This document shows positions 9,258 to 32,200 of a DNA stretch of 44,445 nt, piece by piece. A program made the translations under genes and the position numbers. Each line of letters begins with the position of its first letter. Position 1 is the first letter of the stretch. Origin of the DNA: Paraspadella gotoi (lineage: Eukaryota > Animalia > Chaetognatha); contig CM119271.1 of NCBI GenBank assembly GCA_051294375.1, positions 8,525,969 to 8,570,413 of the forward strand. Direction: 5' to 3'. The notes below the pieces were generated by a model that was not told the DNA's origin, ran no database searches, and saw only the letters and a program-made list of their open reading frames with translations.

Positions 9258-12200
9258 ATGGGGGGATGCGAGGATCAAAAATGCAACAAGATTCTGGCTA
9301 TCGTCGCGTTTGCTTTGAGTCTTTTCGCCTTGGTCTTCCTCATTGCGCTCGCCTTGTGAGTTGAAGTTGAAGAGTTAAACACCCAATACCCGAAATATAA
9401 TCTTATGTCGCTGGTTCGAGAGTTGAATTTCCCCCGGCTGAAAATTATTTTAAGGGGTGTGGCGGTATATTCACACCGCCTCATGTCCACCGTCGTTCTG
9501 CCAAAACAATTGGCTCAGAGGGGGAACACACCCTCCCGGCCGTTGTGTTCCATCCACAACCCTAACGTCTTACTTCTGCGTTGGCAAAGCGAGACCGTCT
9601 TAGGGCAATCGTGCCAGTGGTTGCATGCGTCACTGAGGGTCGGAATCCCCCGAAGCCACCAGTGAGATCCCCCATCGCAATGGGCGTCACGGATTCACAG
9701 ATTCACAGATTCCTTGTTCTGAAGAGACAGTAATTATTATTATGTGTTAGTGACAGAAACCGTTCAATATAAGCAGTCCCTGAGCTTCGGATCAGGCTGT
9801 AACACCATGTTACAGGCGGTTTAAGCGCCCCGTCGCCTCTTTAACTGCCAGACGACCCACCCGCGGCTAGAACCCCGGACCTTTGGGTTGGGAGGACGAA
9901 TGGACTTGCCTCCCGGCAGCCAATGGCCGCTGAGAACGGTTGGTGGATTTTAGTCCACCATACATCCCCCCCCTCCCCGTAGGGAGAAATCTGTTGCTCT
10001 CTTCAGTGAATTGTTGTTGGTTTGGTGGAAAGTTCGTCACCAAGTTGAGGGCATGTCGCCTGATGTGTTGTGGGCGGAAAGTGCATCGCCAGGTTGAGGC
10101 ATGGTCGCCTGAGAGTGTTGTTGTTGCCTGTTGGTGTTCGGAAGTCGGGTGTCTACCACAATAAGAGACAGTAATTATTATTATGTTTAGTGACAGAACC
10201 GTTCAAATATAGCAGTCCCTGAGCTTCGGATCAGGCTGTAACACCATGTTACAGCGGGTTTAAGCGGCCCCGTCCCTCTTAACTGCCAGACGACCACCGG
10301 GCTAGAACCCGGACCTTTGGGTTGGGAGCGATGATTGCCTCCGGCACCAATGGCCGCTGATGAACGGTTGTGGATTTTAGTCCACCATAGTTCATCATAT
10401 CTTGTAAGAGTGATGGAGGCCTTAAACCACAAAGCCTGTCCAAAGGTTAGCTTATTTTTTTAGATGATGTACTATATTTTTATTGTACCAATTTCATTTA
10501 TATTCGTTATTGCAAAAGGAATACCAAACATTAGTAACCGTAAATGCTTTGTAATTCGTCTTTAAGTTAATATAATGTAAAACGAAAATAAAAGTAAATA
10601 AGCTTACTGCCCCTTCATTATGACAATAGGACATACATTGCTCCGTCCTTCCAACAATATTTAGCGTCAACGCAATAAAGAGCTCTAACTTATTCGAATA
10701 TTTAGTTAAGATTCATGTCGTAAACCTAATCGGCCTTATTTAGCCTTAGAAAAAGGGTCATTCATTCAACTTCAAAATTAGGCCAAAAGTGAGTACAAAT
10801 TCAGAAAGCTGAGCTCCTGGGATTTCTGAAAATGGTATTCACTTTAAACATTTGACTGCATTCTACCCTATTTTATATCGGTTTTAATTATAATATAAAA
10901 TAAAAGAAACCTATCTGAAGAGTTGCAGGTCAAACGAAAAGGCCAATCCATCTGATATTTTTTAATGAATTTTTTTATTACTGAATTAGAAAAATGTAAT
11001 AGAGAGACATTTTTAAATTTCAACTTGTATCCTTGAAAATGAAACGTTTTTAAACTTTAACCCTGAATTCTTTCTAACTGGAACGCGTTTAATCAAAAAT
11101 GTCTCTCTATTACATTTTTACAAATGTTTTTTAAGATTGCGCTAATCAAATTTTAATTCAATTATTATTGCAGTCGTTTAGGCTGCAACTCTTCAAATTC
11201 AGTGTAGATTCATTGTAGCTCGAATTTCTTTACCATCTATTTAACTGAAGATTTTGTTCATGACTGGAAAACCAACAGAGTAACAAGATTAATTGTTTTA
11301 ATTCTCCCCTTCTAAACTAACCATACCGGTTTTAACTTCTTACCTAGAATTTTTTAACAAACAGATTGAAAAACAAAATCTTTAAAAAATGTGCTTACCC
11401 ATTTAACTTAACAATTTTGTTATTAACCGATTTCAAAAAAAATATTTAAAACACAATGTTGACATATAAATAAAATCTTTTTTTTGGTGATTACTGGTGA
11501 TTACGATGTATTTCTCGATGTTTTAGCTCTAATACATCAATGATTACGTAATTGTTATGCTGAATGACCTTTCCTCTTAAACGCCCCATTTTAAAGATTA
11601 GATTAAATATTAGGGTAAGGGTATTTTAGGTTAAGGAGTAGGTTTAAGCGATTAAGGTTCGCAAATTAGGGTTGGGGATTAAAGACAAGGTTATAGCTAA
11701 CTTAACCTTAATCCCAAACCCTGATTTTTAATTTTTAACCTTGTCCCTTAGCTGCTAAGGACAAGGTTAAAAATTAAAAATCAGGGTTTGGGATTAAGGT
11801 TAAGAATTGGGTTCTAAGTTTAAAAATTTATTTATATTAAACGTTAAGGTTAAAATTTGGGATAAAGGAAACATAAATGGGGGGGCTCTGGAAAAGAGAA
11901 CCCACTAAGTCTGCATTTAAAAAAAAAAGCCAAACCCACCTCTGTCAGCGTGTACTGGTGTCCGGTTTTGGATCTAATCCTCGTTATCATCGCGTTCCCG
12001 TGCGGCCTGATCGCCTCATCATGGCCCTGGTCAAACCCGGATCTGAACGTTGCCATCTTCACTCTCGCCATCATCAGCATCTGTACCAGTGGCATCGCCA
12101 TCATTGTGATACTTCTCGGTTTCTTACGTGAGAACCAAAAAAAAAAAAAAAAAAATGAGTTGGGGGGGGAAGATTGAAAAGAAAATCTATGTCCTATCTG

Positions 12201-13002
12201 TTTTTTTATATTTTGTTCAGTGTTCAATACCCGAATTGGGGATACACGAACTATTACTACGGATAGGATGTCATCCCGATCGTTCAAAAGTCTCAGGGAA
12301 CTGGATAAACGAATTACAGATGGAGGGAGGTTGTGGAACTATTTCCAATGCTCTTTTAAAATAATATATATATTTAAGGCGGAACGGGTTGAAAAACTGA
12401 AGGGGTCCGCTATAGTATATTTGTCCCATAAGTATGTAAAATAATTATTTCATCTTTTATCTAAATTTTTTAGCTCAATGAGTCAATCTGAATCTGTTTT
12501 AAAATTTATATAAAAATTTTTTAAACTATTTTTTATGCCTTAGTTTGTTCATACAATTTAAGTAAATTTAAACAATAAAAAATGGACATCAATTCAGTAA
12601 TAAAAAGACCAAACAATTTTTTTGCAGAATATTTTTCTATTGTAAAAGTTTTAAATTCTGGCCGCCTTAATATATATATTCTAAAGATTTAAGTTTGCCA
12701 TGGAAATCAATTGAAATAAATTTCAAAACCATCATAGATTGGTTACACACAAGTACAAATTAAATTATCTCTAATTTTTAGGTTTGGCAATTAGAGTTTA
12801 GACATAAAATAGTCTATTTAATAAAATAGCTATCTCGCCTTTGATTAAAAAGCGGCGACTCTTTGAAAACTTTCAAGACAATCGAGTCTAGACAGTCTGG
12901 TTTATGGAATTCCAGAGCACCTGGCTTACATATCAAACGTGGTTTCTTCATGAAGTTTAAATTCTATTGTACTTGCATAATATCTGTCCAGCGGCGGCGT
13001 AG
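9258..13002 (+). CDS. Small uncharacterised membrane protein with three hydrophobic segments (about 95 aa), 3 exons
   Basis: Exon 1 9258-9355 (MGGCEDQKCNKILAIVAFALSLFALVFLIALA, donor TT|gtgagt). Exon 2 11949-12127 (acceptor tgtcag|C completes TTC; VYWCPVLDLILVIIAFPCGLIAFIMALVKPDLNVAIFTLAIISICTSGIAIIVILLGFL, read cleanly in the copy at 23092-23270; this copy has a compensating -1/+1 indel pair). Putative exon 3 12992-13002 (tccag|CG GCG GCG TAG). Splice phases match and codons are C/G-ending as in the IF gene. Exon 3 is the least certain part. Confidence 0.7.
9405..9712 (+). mobile_element. Probable 5'-truncated SINE (duplicate at about 20542-20848)
   Basis: GC-rich island in an AT-rich intron with B-box-like GGTTCGAG near its 5' end, several short hairpins (ggcggt...accgcc, gaggg...ccctc, ccca...tggg) and a tail of 8-nt repeats (cacggatt cacagatt cacagatt). 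Confidence 0.45.
9773..9848 (-). ncRNA. Twister ribozyme-like motif (copy in first duplicated block)
   Basis: Same P3, P4 loop UCCGAAGC, GA-CGGG and outer stem; indel noise in the P2 region. Confidence 0.65.
10212..10286 (-). ncRNA. Twister ribozyme-like motif (copy in first duplicated block)
   Basis: Same P3, P4 loop UCCGAAGC, GA-CGGG and outer stem; indel noise around UAA/P2. Confidence 0.65.
10914..11197. mobile_element. MITE-like element with nested inverted repeats (duplicate about 22037-22317)
   Basis: tgaagagttgcag / ctgcaactcttca outer pair and perfect 25-bp aaaaatgtaatagagagacattttt / aaaaatgtctctctattacattttt inner pair. Confidence 0.5.
11701..11804. repeat. Near-perfect palindrome (about 52-bp arms) within degenerate TTAGGG-like repeats (duplicate 22838-22942)
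   Basis: cttaaccttaatcccaaaccctgatttttaatttttaaccttgtcccttagc-t-gctaagggacaagg...ggattaaggttaag; flanks 11610-11860 are degenerate ttaggg/ttaagg. Confidence 0.85.
12378..12666. mobile_element. Non-autonomous DNA transposon with TTAA target duplication and GG termini (Kolobok-like); duplicate 23522-23809
   Basis: TTAA|GGCGG...CCGCC|TTAA with imperfect about 20-bp TIRs (GGCGGaacgggTTgAAAAACT versus GGCGGccagaaTTtAAAACT) and an AT-rich interior. Confidence 0.55.
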
Positions 13003-13248
13003 ACGTCGGAGTCGTTTGGACGGCATTGGGGCGGGGTCCATTAGGGGTCCCGACGGACCCGGTCCCGTGGTCAAGAGTTAATTCTGCTTCTAGGAGGAGT
13101 GGTGCGTCTTGCACAGAAGGCGATGCCGGATCCTCATTGACGTTGAAACTTGATACAATTAGTGAAGAGTATTTGTTATTTGTTTTGTTTCGATTTTTTG
13201 AATTTCCTCTCGTTTTCCCTCGATTTTTAACTTCGGGTCTTCGTCACG

Positions 13249-13324
<76 letters not shown>

Positions 13325-14270
13325 CAAACCGGACTCTCGGCGTCCGGTTCCGCTGGGATTCCATCGCGTTAAAAAGTCTTGGAAATGTGTTTCCATTAAT
13401 TCGAGTCGAATCGATTCCTCCCGACAATTTCGTGGCGTCGGCGGCAAAACGAGAGGAGATCGCGGCTTCGAGGAGTCGAAGATTGTGGTCTTTGGGGGGG
13501 GGGATTGTGGACTTGAAAGTTTGTGGTCTGTTGGAGGTTTTGTGGTTCTGGACTTCTGGCAATTTTTGGACATTGGACAGGTCAATGGAGAAAACGTTGT
13601 TCGCGGCTTTGGGGGAACATGATTTAGGTTAGGGTATTAATATATACCAAAATCTTGGTCAAATGTAGCTCCTGTTAATTGTAGACTACTCTGTCAACTG
13701 ACTGTCAGTGTCTCGTTAGGAAAAAGCGAAAAAAAAAAACATGACAAAGTCTGGATTCTCTCTCTGTTTTTTTTTAAACATGATTACAGAACAAAATGTT
13801 CAATGTTTAGGATACCAAAACGACTGTTATTTCAATTGATTGTTTAATATTAGTGCATTGAGCGACAAATTAATTTAAACGAGTGATACAATCTCGGTTA
13901 GCGGCGGCCGACGACGACGACGAACGAAAATGAAAGAAAAAAATGAAGCAACAACCTTCTGATTCGAGAAATGGTAATGGCGCGATTAGATACAATTCAA
14001 AAATTGTTTACGTTGGATAATATGTTGTCAATTTAAAAAAAAACAAAAGTCTCATTTGAAATACGACTTTGTGAAGCTCCCGTAAAAAAAAATCTTTGTC
14101 ACATGGGACATTTCTGAAAACGGAATTGTAAGACTCGGAACGTTTTGTTTGTTTGTTTTGTTTGTTTTTTTTTGGTCGATCACTTTGCGTGTTTTGAAAA
14201 GCGTTAACGTGTTACATTTAATTCGTACAATAAGCCCCGAGATAAAAATAAAAACAAACAATAAACTCTT

Positions 14271-14364
<94 letters not shown>

Positions 14365-14845
14365 ATATGGAAAAAAGAAATAAAATGAAAGAAATCCCAC
14401 TGGCCTCTTTCCCTTGATTGCATGCTGGTTAAAATCGCTTCACGGGCGATTTGTCTCTCACCTTTTGGTTATACTGAAAACATCATGCCGGTTTTCTTTT
14501 TTTTAAGAATTCGTTTCATTTCTAAGAATTGAAGGAAAATGAGATTTGGCTCGCTTTCGCGTGCAGAGAAATCAATTAAGGGCCGAAAATAAAGCGCACG
14601 AATTAGCCTAAAGAGCCGAGTACTATTACTATTTTTTTTTTCTTGGATGCAGCAAAGCAAAACCACTTAAATGCAATGCTTTTTTAGTATTGTTCTAGTC
14701 AAGTCTTTGACCTAGTAATTAGTAGCAAGAGCTCCATCCCGACCGCTCTCCTACCCGGTATAAACTCCGACCATTCCACTCCGACCACTTTTTTTCCACT
14801 CCGACCACTTTTTTTCCACTCCCGACCACTTTTTTTCCACCCCGA

Positions 14846-19009
<4,164 letters not shown>

Positions 19010-20392
19010 CTGGAAGGAGTTGTCGAAAAAGTGAGATTGATGGATTGATCGAAAATCAACGAAAAATTGAATATTAATATAATTTCAAAAAAGAGTTAAT
19101 AATGACTTGTTGGCAGCTGGAAAATATAAAATGGACAATCATTGAGGGTCGATGAGAGGTGGCCATAATTGCGTATAAATGGTTACTTCCTGAGGGTGTT
19201 AATGGACGCCCACAATTTTAAATGCAGCCAATTTCAAGCATTTTCTCACTATCACACTTAAGGGAGGGGTCTTTTCATACAATGAATCATTCTTTGAAAC
19301 ATTATACCACTTCATTGTTAGGGAAGCCAGGAACTCTGGGATGAATAAAAAAGACTGTGAGAGAGTCTTGCTTGAAAGCTTGCAGGGACATGCTATGTCA
19401 TTATCTTGTAAAAGTGTTGGAAGCCTTAAACCACCAAAGCCTGTCCAAAGTCAAGGGCAAGATAGCTTATTTATTGAATGAATGGATAATTGTTAATTGG
19501 TTGTACCAATTTCATATGATNNNNNNNNNNNNNNNNNNNNNNNNNGATGGAGGCCTTAAACCACCAAAGCCTGTCCAAAGTTAGCTTATTTTTTTAATGA
19601 ATGTACTATTATTTTTATTGTACCAATTTCATTTATATTCGTTATTGCAAAAGGAATACCAACATTAGTAACGTAAATGCCTTTGTAATTCGTCTTTAAG
19701 TTAATATAATTGGTAAAACGAAAATAAAAGTAAATAAGCTTACTAGCCCCTTCATTATGACAATGGACATACATTGCCTCCGTCCTTCCAACAATATTTA
19801 GCGTCAACGCAATAAAGAGCTCTACTTATTCAATATTTAGTTAAGATTCATCTCGTAATACCCTAATCGGCCTTATTTGCCTTAAGAAAAAGGGTCATTC
19901 AATTCAACTTCAAATTAGGCCAAAATGGAGTACAAATTCAGAAAGCTGAGCTCTTCTTCGATGTGAATTTCGATAAAAATCAATTTAATCTGTTTAAACT
20001 AGTAAGATAATCTTCGTCACTTAACAAAAGCTTTCTCTTTCTTTTTTACTCTTCTCGAAGCGACAGAGCCGTATATAATTGAATATATATTATATAATAT
20101 AATATATTATATATAATTGAATATTTCCCGTCTTCAACGAGAGTTTACTTTAGGTCCGTATCTAGTACTTTTAGCAATAGGCTAAGATAGGTAAATCAAC
20201 GAAAGAAAAAAAAGGAAATAGAAAAACCGGATAATTTAACGAAGGTAAAAGAAGAAAAAAAACTAGAAATACCGAGAAGTGAAGCGACCTACCATTTAGG
20301 ATTTTTCTCACGGACTTACCCGATCAATAAAAGAAAATCCCGATGGTAAGTCGTTTCAGAATATGAAAAAAGGATAACGACGACGACAAAAG

Positions 20393-23300
20393 ATGGGGAT
20401 GCGAGGATCAAAAATGCAACCAAGATTCTGGGCTATCGTCGCGTTTGGCTTTGAGTCTTTTCGCCTTGGTCTTCCTCATTGCGGCTCGCCTTGTGAGTTG
20501 AAGTTGAAGAGTTAAACACCCAATACCCGAAATATAATCTTATGTCGCTGGTTCGAGAGTTGAATTTCCCCCGGCTTGAAAATTATTTTAAGGGGTGTGG
20601 CGGTATATTCACACCGCCTCATGTCCACCGTCGTTCTGCCAAAACAATTGGCTCAGAGGGGGAACACACCCTCCGGCCGTTGTGTTCCATCCACAACCCT
20701 AACGTCCTTACTTCTGCGTTGGCAAAGCGGACCGTCTTAGGCAATCGTGCCAGTGGTTGCATGCGTCACTGAGGGTCGAGAATCCCCCGAAGCACCAGTG
20801 AGATCCCCATTCGCAATGGGCGTCACGGATTCACAGATTCACAGATTCCTTGTTCTGAAGAGACAGTAATTATTATTATGTGTTAGTGACAGAAACCGTT
20901 CAATATAAGCAGTCCCTGAGCTTCGGATCAGGCTGTAACACCATGTTACAGGCGGTGTTAAGCGCCCCGTCCCTCTTAACTGCCAGACGACCACCGGGCT
21001 AGAACCCCGGACCTTTGGGTTGGGAGGCGAATGACTTGCCTCCCGGCACCAATGGCCGCTGATGAACGGTTGGTGGATTTTAGTCCACCATACATCCCCC
21101 CCTCCCGTAGGGAGAAATCTGTTGCGTCTCTTCAGTGAATTGTTGTTGTTGGTGGAAAGTTCGTCACCAAGTTGAGGCATGTCGCCTGATGTGTTGTGGG
21201 CGGAAAGTGCATCGCCAGGTTGAGGCATGTCGCCTGAGAGTGTTGTTGTTGCTGTTGTGTTCGGAAGTCGGGCTACCACAATGAAGAGACAGTAATTATT
21301 ATTATGTGTTAGTGACAGAACCGTTCAAATATAGCAGTCCCTGAGCTTCGGATCAGGCTGTAACACCATGTTACAGGCGGGTTAAGCGCCCCGTCCCTCT
21401 TAACTGCCAGACGACCACCGGGCTAGAACCCCGGACCTTTGGGTTGGGAGGGCGAATGACTTGCCTCCGGCACCAATGGCCGCTGATGAACGGTTGTGGA
21501 TTTTAGTCCACCATAGTTCTCATATCTTGTAAGAGTGATGGAGGCCTTAAACCACAAAGCCTGTCCAAAGTTAGCTTATTTTTTTAATGAATGTACTATA
21601 TTTTTATTGTACCAATTTCATTTATATTCGTTATTGCAAAAGGAATACCAACATTAGTAACGTAAATGCCTTTGTAATTCGTCTTTAAGTTAATATAATG
21701 GTAAAAACGAAAATAAAAGTAAATAAGCTTACTAGCCCCTTCATTATGACAATGGACATACATTGCCTCCGTCCTTCCAACAATATTTAGCGTCAACGCA
21801 ATAAAGAGCTCTACTTATTCAATATTTAGTTAAGATTCATTCGTAATACCTAATCGGCCTTATTTGCCTTAAGAAAAAGGGTCATTCAATTCAACTTCAA
21901 ATTAGGCCAAAAGTGAGTACAAATTCAGAAAGCTGAGCTCCTGGCGATTCTGAAAATGTATTCACTTTAAACATTTTGATGCATTCTACCCTATTTTATA
22001 TCGGTTTTAATTATAATATAAAATAAAAGAAACCTATCTGAAGAGTTGCAGGTCAAACGAAAAAGGCCAATCCATCTGATATTTTTTATGAATTTTTTAT
22101 TACTGAATTAGAAAAATGTAATAGAGAGACATTTTTAAATTTCAACTTGTATCCTTGAAAATGAAACGTTTTTAAACTTTAACCCTGAATTCTTTCTAAC
22201 TGGAACGCGTTTATCAAAATGTCTCTCTATTACATTTTTACAAATGTTTTTTAAGATTGCCTAATCAAATTTTTAATTCAATATTATTGCAGTCGTTTAG
22301 GCTGCAACTCTTCAAATTCAGTGTAGATTCATTGTAGCTCGAATTTCTTTACCATCTATTTAACTGAAGATTTTGTTCATGACTGGAAAACCAACAGAGT
22401 AACAAGATTAATTGTTTAATTCTCCCCTTCTAAACTAACCATACCGGTTTTAACTTCTTACCTAGAATTTTTTAACAAACAGATTGAAAAACAAATCTTT
22501 AAAAAATGTGCTTACCCATTTAACTTAACAATTTTGTTATTAACCGATTTCAAAAAAAATATTTAAAACACAATGTTGACATATAAATAAAATCTTTTTT
22601 TTGGTGATTACTGGTGATTACGATGTATTTCTCGATGTTTTAGCTCTAATACATCAATGNNNNNNNNNNNNNNNNNNNNNNNNNATTACGTATTGTTATG
22701 CTGAATGACCTTTCCTCTTAAACGCCCCATTTTAAAGATTAGATTAAATATTAGGGTAAGGGTATTTAGGTTAAGGAGTAGGTTAGCGATTAAGGTTCGC
22801 AATTAGGGTTGGGGATTAAAGACAAGGTTATAGCTAACTTAACCTTAATCCCAAACCCTGATTTTTAATTTTTAACCTTGTCCCTTAGCTGCTAAGGGAC
22901 AAGGTTAAAAATTAAAAATCAGGGTTTGGGATTAAGGTTAAGAATTGGGTTCTAAGTTTAAAAATTTATTTATATTAAACGTTAAGGTTAAAATTTGGGG
23001 ATAAAGGAAACATAAATGGGGGGGGGGCTCTGGGAAAAGAGAACCCACTAATCTAGCATTTAAAAAAAAAAGCCAAACCCACCTCTGTCAGCGTGTACTG
23101 GTGTCCGGTTTTGGATCTAATCCTCGTTATCATCGCGTTCCCGTGCGGCCTGATCGCCTTCATCATGGCCCTGGTCAAACCGGATCTGAACGTTGCCATC
23201 TTCACTCTCGCCATCATCAGCATCTGTACCAGTGGCATCGCCATCATTGTGATACTTCTCGGTTTCTTACGTGAGAACCAAAAAAAAAAAAAAAAAATGA

Positions 23301-24145
23301 GTTGGGGGGGGGAAGATTGAAAAGAAAATCTATGTCCTATCTGTTTTTTTATATTTTGTTCAGTGTTCAATACCCCGAATTGGGGATACACGAACTATTA
23401 CTACGGATAGGATGTCATCCCGATCGTTCAAAAAGTCTCAGGGAACTGGATAAACGAATTACAGATGGAGGGAGGTTGTGGGAACTATTTCCAATGCTCT
23501 TTTAAAATATATATATATTAAGGCGGAACGGGTTGAAAACTGGAAGGGGTCCGCTATATATATTTGTCCCATAAGTATGTAAAATAATTATTTCATCTTT
23601 TATCTAAATTTTTTAGCTCAATGAGTCAATCTGAATCTGTTTTTAAAATTTATATAAAATTTTTTAAACTATTTTTTATGCCTTAGTTTGTTCATACAAT
23701 TAAGTAAATTTAAACAATAAAAATGGACATCAATTCAGTAATAAAAAGACCAAACAATTTTTTTGCAGAATATTTTTCTATTGTAAAAAGTTTTAAATTC
23801 TGGCCCGCCTTAATATATATATTTCTAAAGATTTTAAGTTTGCCATGGAAATCAATTGAAATAAATTCAAAACCATCATAGATTGGTTACAACAAAGTAC
23901 AAATTAAATATCTCTAATTTTTAGGTTTGGCAATTAGAGTTTAGACATAAAATAGTCTATTTAATAAAATAGGCTATCTCGCCTTTGATTAAAAAGCGGG
24001 ACTCTTTGAAAACTTTCAAGACAATCGAGTCTAGACAGTCTGGTTTATGGAATTCCAGAGCACCTGGCTTACATATCAAACGTGGTTTCTTCATGAAGTT
24101 TAAATTCTATTGTACTTGCATAATATCTGTCCAGCGGCGGCGTAG
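20393..24145 (+). CDS. Duplicate copy of the small membrane-protein gene
   Basis: Exon 1 20393-20492 has several homopolymer indels, exon 2 23092-23270 is intact, exon 3 is 24135-24145. Part of the 10.7-kb duplicated block. Confidence 0.6.
20909..20983 (-). ncRNA. Twister ribozyme-like motif (second tandem copy)
   Basis: Same elements as 21334-21407; P2 strand reads CACC; predicted cut between 20960 and 20959. Confidence 0.7.
20987..21059 (-). other. tRNA-like (Pol III promoter-like) module directly 5' of the twister motif; also at 21411-21483, 9852-9930 and 10290-10357
   Basis: 73 nt closed by acceptor-like stem GCGGCCA/UGGUCGU, with A-box-like TGGTGCCGGGAGG and T-arm CCGGG-GUUCUAG-CCCGG containing B-box-like GGTTCTAGCCC. 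The anticodon arm does not pair well, so this is not called as a functional tRNA. Confidence 0.5.
21334..21407 (-). ncRNA. Twister ribozyme-like motif, circularly permuted (P5-type)
   Basis: Minus strand reads GCAGUU AA GAGG GA CGGG GCGC U|UAA CCC GC CUGUAAC AUGGU GUUACAG CCUGA UCCGAAGC UCAGG GACUGC (the bar only separates P1 from UAA). Outer stem GCAGUU/GACUGC; P3 CUGUAAC/GUUACAG; P4 CCUGA/UCAGG closing loop UCCGAAGC (twister consensus UCNNAAGC); pseudoknot UCCG/CGGG preceded by the conserved GA; GC/GC second pseudoknot; UAA at the cleavage site (predicted cut between 21384 and 21383). P1 and P2 are short or imperfect. Confidence 0.72.
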
Positions 24146-24389
24146 ACGTCGGAGTCGTTTGACGGCATTGGGGGCGGGGGTCCATTAGGGGTCCCGACGG
24201 ACCCGGTCCCGTGGTCAAGAGTTAATTCTGCTTCTAGGAGGAGTGGTGCGTCTTGCACAGAAGGCGATGCCGGATCCTCATTGACGTTGAAACTTGATAC
24301 AATTAGTGAAGAGTATTTGTTATTTGTTTTGTTTCGATTTTTGAATTTCCTCTCGTTTTCCCTCGATTTTTAACTTCGGGTCTTCGTCA

Positions 24390-24448
<59 letters not shown>

Positions 24449-25392
24449 CAAACCGGACTCTCGCGTCCGGTTCCGCGCGGATTCCATCGCGTTAAAAGTC
24501 TTGGAAATGTGTTTCCATTAATTCGAGTCGAATCGATTCCTCCCGACAATTTCGTGGCGTCGGCGGCAAAACGAGAGGAGATCCCGCGGCTTCGAGGAGG
24601 TCGAAGATTGTGGTCTTTGGGGGGGGGGATTGTGGACTTGAAAGTTTGTGGTCTGTTGGAGGGTTTGTGGTTCTGGACTTCTGGCAATTTTGGACATTGG
24701 ACAGGTCAATGGAGAAAACGTTGTTCGCGCTTTGGGGGAACATGATTTAGGTTAGGGTATTAATATATACCAAAATCTTGGTCAAATGTTAGCTCCTGTT
24801 AATTGTAGACTACTCTGTCACTGACTGTCAGTGTCTCGTTAGGAAAAGCGAAAAAAAAAAAAACATGACAAAGTCTGGATTCTCTCTCTGTTTTTTTTTA
24901 AACATGATTACAGAACAAAATGTTCAATGTTTAGGATACAAAACGACTGTTATTTCAATTGATTGTTTAATATTAGTGCATTGAGCGACAAATTAATTTA
25001 AACGAGTGATACAATCTCGGTTAGCGGCGGCGACGACGACGACGACGAAAATGAAAGAAAAAAATGAAGCAACAACCTTCTGATTCGAGAAATGGTAATG
25101 GCGCGATTAGATACAATTCAAAAATTGTTTACGTTGGATAATATGTTGTCAATTTAAAAAAAAACAAAAGTCTCATTTGAAATACGACTTTGTGAAGCTC
25201 CCGTAAAAAAAAAAATCTTTGTCACATGGGACATTTCTGAAAACGGAATTGTAAGACTCGGAACGTTTTGTTTTGTTTTGTTTTGTTTTTTTTTTGGTCG
25301 ATCACTTTGCGTGTTTTGAAAGCGTGTAACGTGTTACATTTAATTCGTACAATAAAGCCCCGAGATAAAAATAAAACAAACAATAAACTCTT

Positions 25393-25513
<121 letters not shown>

Positions 25514-25924
25514 ATATGGAAAAAAGAAATAAAATGATAAGAAATCCCACTGGCCTCTTTCCCCTTGATTGCATGCTGGTTAAAATCGCTTCACGGGCGA
25601 TTTGTTCTCTCACCTTTTGGTTATACTGAAAACATCATGCGGTTTTCTTTTTTTTAAGAATTCGTTTCATTTCTAAGAAATTGAAGGAAAATGAGATTTG
25701 GCTCGCTTTCGCGTGCAGAGAAATCAATTAAGGGGCCGAAAATAAAGCGCACGAAATTAGCCTAAAGAGCCGAGTACTATTACTATTTTTTTTTTCTTGG
25801 ATGCAGCAAGCAAAACCACTTAAATGCAATGCTTTTTTAGTATTGTTCTAGTCAAGTCTTTGACCTAGTAATTAGTAAGCAAGAGCTCCATCCCGACCGC
25901 TCTCTACCCGGTATAAACTCCGAC

Positions 25925-25997
25925 CATTCCACTCCGACCACTTTTTTTCCACTCCGACCACTTTTTTTCCACTCCGACCACTTTTTTTCCACCCCGA

Positions 25998-26002
<5 letters not shown>
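25925..26002. repeat. About 21-bp minisatellite at the start of the IF 3' UTR (duplicate 14773-14850)
   Basis: (ttccactccgaccacttttt)x about 3.5, overlapping the stop codon. Confidence 0.85.

Positions 26003-32200
<6,198 letters not shown>

Follow-up and report, generated by a model that had tools for sequence, protein, structure and literature searches.

A miniature LTR retrotransposon of a chaetognath with a tRNA-like module and a predicted, divergent twister in its LTRs

The closest described systems come from two sides. Helenus and TRIMp3 are miniature LTR retrotransposons (TRIMs) with tRNA-like sequence in their LTRs (Kojima 2024, PMC10886601); in the accessible portions of that paper, ribozymes appear solely in the title of a reference. 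Plant LTR retrozymes are non-coding LTR elements that combine a 4-bp target site duplication (TSD), a primer-binding site (PBS), a polypurine tract (PPT) and a single self-cleaving ribozyme in each LTR (Cervera et al. 2016, PMC4918200; PMC7761336; PMC9695139), and in the retrozyme model it is circularisation that resolves a monomer left without a terminal repeat (PMC4918200). Animal retrozymes lack LTRs, PBS and PPT (2020 review, PMC7761336) and have been linked to Penelope elements (2026 preprint, 10.64898/2026.07.22.740005). Twisters have been recorded in RTE-type non-LTR elements (PMC7761336, PMC8501958).

Here, the window is the whole stretch of DNA that was analysed, 44,445 nt from the chaetognath Paraspadella gotoi, and all positions refer to it. 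It contains an insertion of the following anatomy, read from direct repeats, TSD, PBS, PPT and the loose ends of read contigs.

20856..21515, minus strand: whole element, 660 bp, in the order LTR, internal region, LTR
21282..21515, minus strand: 5' LTR, 234 bp, with TA...CA ends
20856..21092, minus strand: 3' LTR, 237 bp, with TA...CA ends
21093..21281, minus strand: internal region, 189 bp, no coding sign, containing a 48-bp tandem pair
21516..21519, minus strand: upstream copy of the TSD, 4 bp, the same bases as 20855-20852
20852..20855, minus strand: downstream copy of the TSD, 4 bp
21267..21281, minus strand: PBS of tRNA-Trp type at the start of the internal region, by match to a printed Trp PBS
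21093..21106, minus strand: PPT abutting the 3' LTR, from the sequence
9720..10389, minus strand: second copy of the insertion, within an 11.1-kb duplication, with identical TSD and flanks

The host element is a young, non-coding LTR retrotransposon of the TRIM kind, and its class is settled; it is neither a SINE nor a satellite. With 234 + 189 + 237 = 660 bp it stays below the 1 kb of a TRIM with two LTRs, a PBS follows the 5' LTR, a PPT precedes the 3' LTR, a TSD flanks the whole and no protein is encoded: the 161-codon stop-to-stop frame that overlaps the internal region has no Pfam match. The two LTRs are identical at 232 of 232 aligned bases, with seven single-base gaps and zero substitutions. 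In the majority form of the read contigs the PBS is one base shorter than in the assembly, and this form agrees at 13 of 14 positions with the tRNA-Trp site given for Gypsy-32_NVi and Helenus-2_SyJa (PMC10886601, Fig. S2). The tRNA-like module described below occurs four times in the window, twice about 424 bases apart and again as the same pair 11.1 kb off; because both loci have the same flanks and TSD, they represent one insertion counted twice and are not independent.

Family evidence was taken from the contig tables of public sequencing runs, among which X1, X4 and X9 are three studies of one organism. In X1 the summed contig depth is 1e5-8e5 on the element and about 20 on the flank, with a like pattern in X4 and X9, so that the element exceeds its flank by three to four orders of magnitude; since summed contig depth is not copy number, we read this only as "very abundant". 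Loose contig ends accumulate at 21092, 21282 and 20856. Between 113 and 163 contigs depart at 21092 into dissimilar AT-rich flanks. In X1 the departing contigs number more than 100 at each of 21092 and 21282, and X4 has 52 at 20856; this pile-up fixes the LTR ends. The family is thus dispersed and very abundant, and its flanks diverge exactly at the LTR termini. LTR depth is four to nine times that of the internal region, a ratio that points to numerous solo LTRs. Run X9, which may be RNA, covers the flank as well as the element. Runs X11 and X12 contribute no contigs. Run X10, from organism B, holds two 151-nt pieces at a depth of 4-5.

Among TRIMs, the element resembles Helenus in its size of less than 1 kb, the tRNA-like sequence in each LTR, the GGTTC box B and the PPT (PMC10886601). 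The 4-bp TSD is that of the animal Helenus families, the Gypsy-type Trp PBS is that of Helenus-2_SyJa, and TA...CA ends are found in some Helenus families. There are also differences. The box A of most families (TRGCY, YGG) is not kept, and for this reason we term the element Helenus-like only. Further, its module is followed by 131 nt with a twister-like fold, whereas most of the Helenus LTRs compared carry a short tail containing a T run in that place (T4 after the tRNA part in 12 of 15 LTR entries, counted by eye over the first 15 in part 7 of the supplement to PMC10886601). No run of four T lies within the element, the first one downstream being at 20644, 212 nt away. An exact motif search of the same supplement, whose line breaks may hide matches, gave no match to the element.

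The tRNA-like part of each LTR and the helix around it are as follows.

20987..21059, minus strand: tRNA-like module, 3' LTR copy, 73 nt, with a 7-bp terminal stem, a tRNA-like 3' half and no canonical A box
21411..21483, minus strand: second copy of the same module, in the 5' LTR
20997..21006, minus strand: B-box-like motif with the GGTTC core retained and T at a purine position; repeated at 21430-21421
20896..21071, minus strand: outer helix, with arms near 21071-21065 and 20902-20896, enclosing module and twister as one domain

A first-pass annotation had described this module as having an acceptor-like stem, a T-arm and A- and B-box-like motifs. The 7-bp stem (GCGGCCA/UGGUCGU) is borne out by pair probabilities of 0.75-0.99 in context, and the module folds better than 200 of 200 shuffles (z -3.8). 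Its G.U pairs are often G-C in run X3 (66% of depth at 20987, 22% at 20990). In the outer helix, five of the seven pairs have a probability of 1.0 and the outer two of 0.38-0.97 in both LTRs. The promoter boxes came through only in part, and the T-arm did not. The B box, which reads GGTTCTAGCC, has T where the consensus has a purine but keeps the GGTTC core of the Helenus box B (21006-21002), and shows no variant above 4% of depth among the 40 listed of 65 variant rows. A canonical A box (TRGYNNANNNG) is absent from the module; TGGT and CGG stand at the expected place, and TRGCY is absent. The T-arm has a probability of 0.00-0.02 in the nested ensemble, two of five anticodon-stem pairs and three of five T-stem pairs fail in the tRNA register, and a single G of the D-loop-like region is absent from between a third and half of the depth.

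A similar division holds for the tRNA likeness as such. An earlier profile, with an E value of 0.0004, had been trained on a set biased by a T-arm motif similar to the module; it was therefore replaced by one built from 132 phage tRNAs selected solely by their D-arm motif. With the latter, the module is the top match in the 44-kb window (21032-20992, E 0.0036) and its counterpart in the other LTR ranks second (E 0.0087). The alignment is confined to positions 26-66, that is, the half from anticodon arm to T-arm, and the 5' half is unaligned; as both profiles were built from phage tRNAs, no isotype is claimed. The tRNA-gene call that had been suggested as a check came back empty, with 0 tRNA genes from ARAGORN in the window, and Rfam tRNA has no match there, neither at gathering level nor at E<=10. 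The module appears to be a worn tRNA or the remnant of a SINE head, and perhaps a promoter; to judge by its sequence and predicted folds, it would be neither a tRNA mimic nor a switch. Inspection also disposed of two other readings: the core motifs of an HDV-like or hammerhead ribozyme are absent from the module, and self-priming fails since neither the 3' end of the module nor the predicted cut end is complementary to the PBS.

The first-pass annotation went further and saw here a twister analogue of SM-alpha, with a hairpin that competes with the cloverleaf. Spelled out, the element would be a SINE or satellite transcribed by Pol III from its tRNA head, and a cloverleaf-versus-hairpin switch would control the ribozyme or trim a tRNA trailer. 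SM-alpha (PMC2770079) and the Perere-3 elements with their T-variant twisters (PMC8501958) are indeed comparable: both are abundant retroelements of animals and have a small ribozyme. SM-alpha has tRNA-like sequence too, in the form of tRNA-Gln-like parts beside hammerheads (PMC2770079), and in our element a tRNA-like 3' half lies directly upstream of a ribozyme-like fold. SM-alpha is, however, a non-LTR element with a hammerhead, and the host element here is a miniature LTR retrotransposon, with LTRs, PBS, PPT, a 4-bp TSD and family ends that coincide with the LTR termini; as to element class, this reading is largely refuted. The switch fares no better. The GGGAGGC/GCCUCCC hairpin is the dominant fold, with a probability of 1.0 in the 3' LTR copy. 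Any fold with a D-like stem is at least 12 kcal/mol worse than the minimum (-24.9 at best, against -36.9); with no cloverleaf near the minimum, there is nothing to switch from. The probabilities of the twister helices are equal with and without the module.

The analogy with theta ribozymes was likewise not sustained. These too lie just 3' of a tRNA-like unit (PMC10879173), but they have an HDV-like fold, serve phage tRNAs and cut within 5 nt on either side of the tRNA end. In our element there is no functional tRNA, and the predicted cut (20960|20959) falls 27 nt 3' of the module end, the distance originally given, which the twister register confirms. This distance also speaks against trailer trimming, and on balance we hold the SM-alpha-like reading to be very improbable. 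The general idea of a self-promoting, self-processing repeat is a reasonable one.

The module ends 3 nt before the outer stem of the predicted twister (20983), as first described. The parts of the ribozyme are given below for the 5' LTR, followed by the extent of the 3' LTR copy.

21334..21407, minus strand: predicted P5-type twister, 5' LTR, the sole descriptor match in the window
21407-21403 with 21338-21334, minus strand: P5
21395-21394, minus strand: GA
21384-21382, minus strand: UAA
21393-21391 with 21351-21349, minus strand: pseudoknot, 3 bp
21376-21370 with 21364-21358, minus strand: P3
21357-21353 with 21344-21340, minus strand: P4
20909..20983, minus strand: predicted twister, 3' LTR copy, in which the assembly carries an additional base at 20956

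Likeness to the P5 type of twister (RF02684) lies in the order of parts, that is, GA-pseudoknot strand, UAA at the cut, P2, GC, and P4 with a U-NNN-AAGC loop. These core bases are all present in the 5' LTR copy, where P4 (5 bp), P5 and five of the seven P3 pairs have probabilities of at least 0.97. Both pseudoknots, of 3 bp and 2 bp, are Watson-Crick paired by descriptor and inspection; the 3-bp one deviates from the Rfam consensus on both sides, yet remains Watson-Crick. The differences from RF02684 are a P1 of 6 nt with at most one G.U pair, a P2 of two pairs plus a C.A mismatch, a long P3, a closed P5 and one swapped pseudoknot pair. By comparison, P2 has three to four pairs in all 15 of the phage twisters aligned and P1 has 18-31 nt in 14 of them. 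Natural twisters of the P5 type that have a 3-nt P2 strand together with a long P3 were found in phage contigs. In the window, Rfam twister has no match at gathering level or at E<=10; the element being below all Rfam thresholds tried, we speak of a predicted, divergent twister and not of an assigned member. Perere-3 differs in being a non-LTR element, with its twister at the 5' end and a P1 that is completed by the target site (PMC8501958).

The descriptor (P5 order, RF02684 layout, free pseudoknot pairing) was written after viewing the sequence. Apart from its one match in the 5' LTR it was passed by 0 of 20,000 LTR shuffles and found nothing in 100 shuffled windows; as it is post hoc, and three of the 120 metagenome loci that had been preselected for the motif pass it too, the match is support and not proof. 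A covariance model of the 15 phage twisters places the four LTR copies at ranks 1-4 of its seven matches in the window (E 0.10-0.26), three of the four in another register, and its sequence-only form gives E values of 1.5-5.5. The union of tRNA-like module and twister-like fold noticed at first sight is real, but the copy singled out then, in the 3' LTR, fails the descriptor. This is due to the additional base at 20956, with which P3 and P4 do not fold; it is missing in 88% of covering depth, and the 5' LTR copy has the majority form.

Other placements were tried and set aside. An alternative twister register that uses an upstream GAGGG leaves P2 unpaired and puts a G.G mismatch in the pseudoknot. 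Searches with a twister pattern specific to the family gave 0 viral stretches and 120 metagenome loci; as relatives the metagenome loci were dismissed as chance, with likeness limited to matches of 19 bp or less and at least three P4 pairs in 11 of 122.

Variation within the family bears on whether the fold is maintained. Five non-CpG substitutions of at least 10% of depth are listed in X3: those at 20984, 20987 and 20990 keep or strengthen a pair, and the other two, at 20943 and 20944, fall at the tip of P3. One pseudoknot pair is broken by a CpG-type change at 20924, which reaches 13% of depth in X3 and 4% in X9, with no change on the partner side. Among the 40 listed of 65 variant rows there is no two-sided compensatory change. 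Tests of twisters found P1 to be dispensable and P2 imperfections to be tolerated, while the pseudoknots and the catalytic bases were not dispensable (PMC11662667), and the combination seen here, P1 and P2 defects with intact pseudoknots and catalytic bases, is this pattern of tolerance. In the nested model, however, the pseudoknot strand is hidden in a competing helix (probability 0.99), which could silence the ribozyme. On these models we consider that the predicted twister can probably cleave itself.

Should it not do so, the element would be an ordinary Helenus-like TRIM with a dead ribozyme, whose LTR took up a SINE-like piece composed of a tRNA head and a twister-derived body, and whose linear RNA is copied. 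The missing P1, weak P2 and competing helix would fit such a history, as would the lack of an Rfam match, the lost A box and the pseudoknot-breaking variant at 20924; SINEs with a tRNA head and an RTE 5'-UTR body are common (PMC5786205), and RTE elements bear truncated twisters (PMC7761336, PMC8501958). We nevertheless regard it as rather unlikely. The family is young and abundant, and in it no fixed core base has been lost; both pseudoknots are intact, as are P3, P4 and P5. The changed pseudoknot remains paired, and tested natural twisters tolerate defects of P1 and P2 (PMC11662667). Without the ribozyme, moreover, the element would be left with no obvious T-run signal for its 3' end.

If the twister is active, the product would be the following.

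20960..21383, minus strand: predicted cut-to-cut monomer, a candidate circular RNA of 424 nt, with cuts at 21384|21383 and 20960|20959 from the twister register

The twister would cut the transcript in both LTRs, and the 424-nt monomer would be circularised and serve as template for the reverse transcriptase of a helper retrotransposon; on the models at hand, we see an even balance for and against this course of events. We are equally divided as to whether the tRNA remnant is an internal Pol III promoter with a start near 21483, a role that its sequence, with a B-box-like motif and no canonical A box, makes doubtful. A transcript from near 21483 would reach the first cut site after 100 nt and the second 424 nt on, and the ribozyme would occupy the place where Helenus LTRs usually carry a T run. 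Without a Pol III promoter, read-through or an upstream promoter would supply the RNA, and the later steps would be the same. In a SINE, a ribozyme placed after the head would cause truncation (PMC5786205); in the present element the head cut from the 5' LTR would persist in the portion of the monomer that comes from the 3' LTR, so that a promoter can sit upstream of the ribozyme. Once both LTRs are cut, no terminal repeat is left for a linear template, and the monomer must therefore be circular or tandem, as in the retrozyme proposal.

In the centroid fold the two ends of the predicted monomer pair together; against shuffles the monomer fold is modest (z -2.2, with 4 of 100 as good). A short helix near the cut, together with P5 and the outer helix, would hold the ends together in a way that suits host ligation. 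A host ligase of the RtcB kind is a candidate for joining such ends. The competing helix noted above would itself hold the ends for ligation, and it could stop the circle from being cut again. Host tRNA-Trp would then prime at the PBS, and a Gypsy-type helper would copy round the circle, rebuild both LTRs and integrate the product with a 4-bp TSD.

An active but leaky twister could do without a circle. Serving as a substitute for a terminator, it would yield RNAs cut solely in the 3' LTR, which keep a 100-nt repeat (module plus half the ribozyme) and act as a linear LTR template. Strand transfer by way of a terminal repeat is the established LTR mechanism, and the 100-nt repeat would permit it. 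The element has no T4 run, the competing helix could slow cleavage, and upstream hairpins reduce twister cleavage on average (PMC11662667). Both ribozymes share their local context, however, so that 3'-selective cutting would come about by chance alone, and the predicted pairing of the monomer ends fits ligation. We think this course unlikely.

Returning to the circular template, its nearest parallel is the plant LTR retrozyme, which has in common with our element the general LTR design outlined at the beginning, a cut-to-cut monomer without a terminal repeat and a proposed Gypsy helper. Retrozymes have type III hammerheads and a Met PBS, where our element has a twister-like fold and a Trp-type PBS; it resides in an animal, has a tRNA-like module upstream of the ribozyme, and its circles are predicted where those of plants have been shown. 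Rfam hammerhead has no match in the window, so the element would be retrozyme-like in its working but is not a retrozyme by definition. Taking the pieces together, we tentatively propose an animal LTR retrozyme with a twister, and give this full model somewhat less than even weight: a TRIM driven by Pol III, in which the ribozyme replaces the terminator, a ligase closes the pre-paired 424-nt monomer, and thousands of copies have arisen via the circle.

In the open-access literature, as judged from titles, the opening parts of abstracts and individual passages, no twister is on record for an LTR element or TRIM. No ribozyme is on record there for Helenus, and the LTR ribozymes in that literature are plant hammerheads. 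The combination of a tRNA-like module and a twister in the LTRs of a TRIM therefore appears to be undescribed. If the twister cuts, the ribozyme-in-LTR route would have arisen separately in animals with another ribozyme class, the circular-template model for LTR retrotransposition could be put to a concrete test, and the element would add to the natural twisters one in which P1 is almost missing and one pseudoknot pair is swapped. If the reading as an animal LTR retrozyme is true, the Helenus and retrozyme designs would be joined in one element, and twisters would have a role in LTR retrotransposition.

As to its surroundings, the 44-kb window is rich in microsatellites and contains exons of an intermediate-filament gene. 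For the exon next to the element, the sole named match among the 120 listed is from a chaetognath, at 73% identity.

The window, as assembled, holds two copies of the 660-bp TRIM element, but both should be counted as one insertion, since its 11.1-kb and 2-kb duplications are probably assembly artefacts. The duplications and the other features discussed here are as follows (window positions):

about 9300-19300 / 20400-30450, 11.1-kb direct duplication, with numerous single-base gaps
19610-19851 / 21599-21840, 2-kb duplication, adjoining an N gap at about 19521-19545
21144-21246, 48-bp tandem pair in the internal region of the element, with a small predicted hairpin per unit
21092-21070, minus, hairpin at the extreme LTR start, present in the 5' LTR too
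21523-21583 and 19370-19470, minus, further abundant short repeat
20734-20801, short stretch downstream of the element
20541-20557 and 9404-9420, plus, isolated B-box-like motif in the flank
27600-31100 and 16400-17800, minus, exons of an invertebrate intermediate-filament gene

Within the element, the LTR-start hairpin lies upstream of the enclosed domain formed by the tRNA-like module and the predicted twister. The IMG/VR contigs L446, L452, L453, L454, L459, L476, L478, and L490 carry twisters of the P5 type whose P2 strand is 3 nt long, several of these twisters being paired on one contig at a spacing of about 350-500 nt. A further contig, L295, resembles tandem twisters; the Rfam scan, which covered this contig only, gave no match at gathering level.

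A truncated copy of the abundant short repeat (21523-21583) stands directly upstream of the 5' LTR, and this repeat has high contig depth and loose ends of its own. The stretch downstream, where contig depth is raised in the public sequencing runs X1 and X4, is a third, less abundant repeat. The flanking B-box-like motif matches the tRNA profile weakly (E 0.13).

One exon of the intermediate-filament gene matches Pfam Filament (E 6.5e-05). The top matches to its exons reach 82% identity, and the sole named one among the matches listed is from a chaetognath (73% identity).
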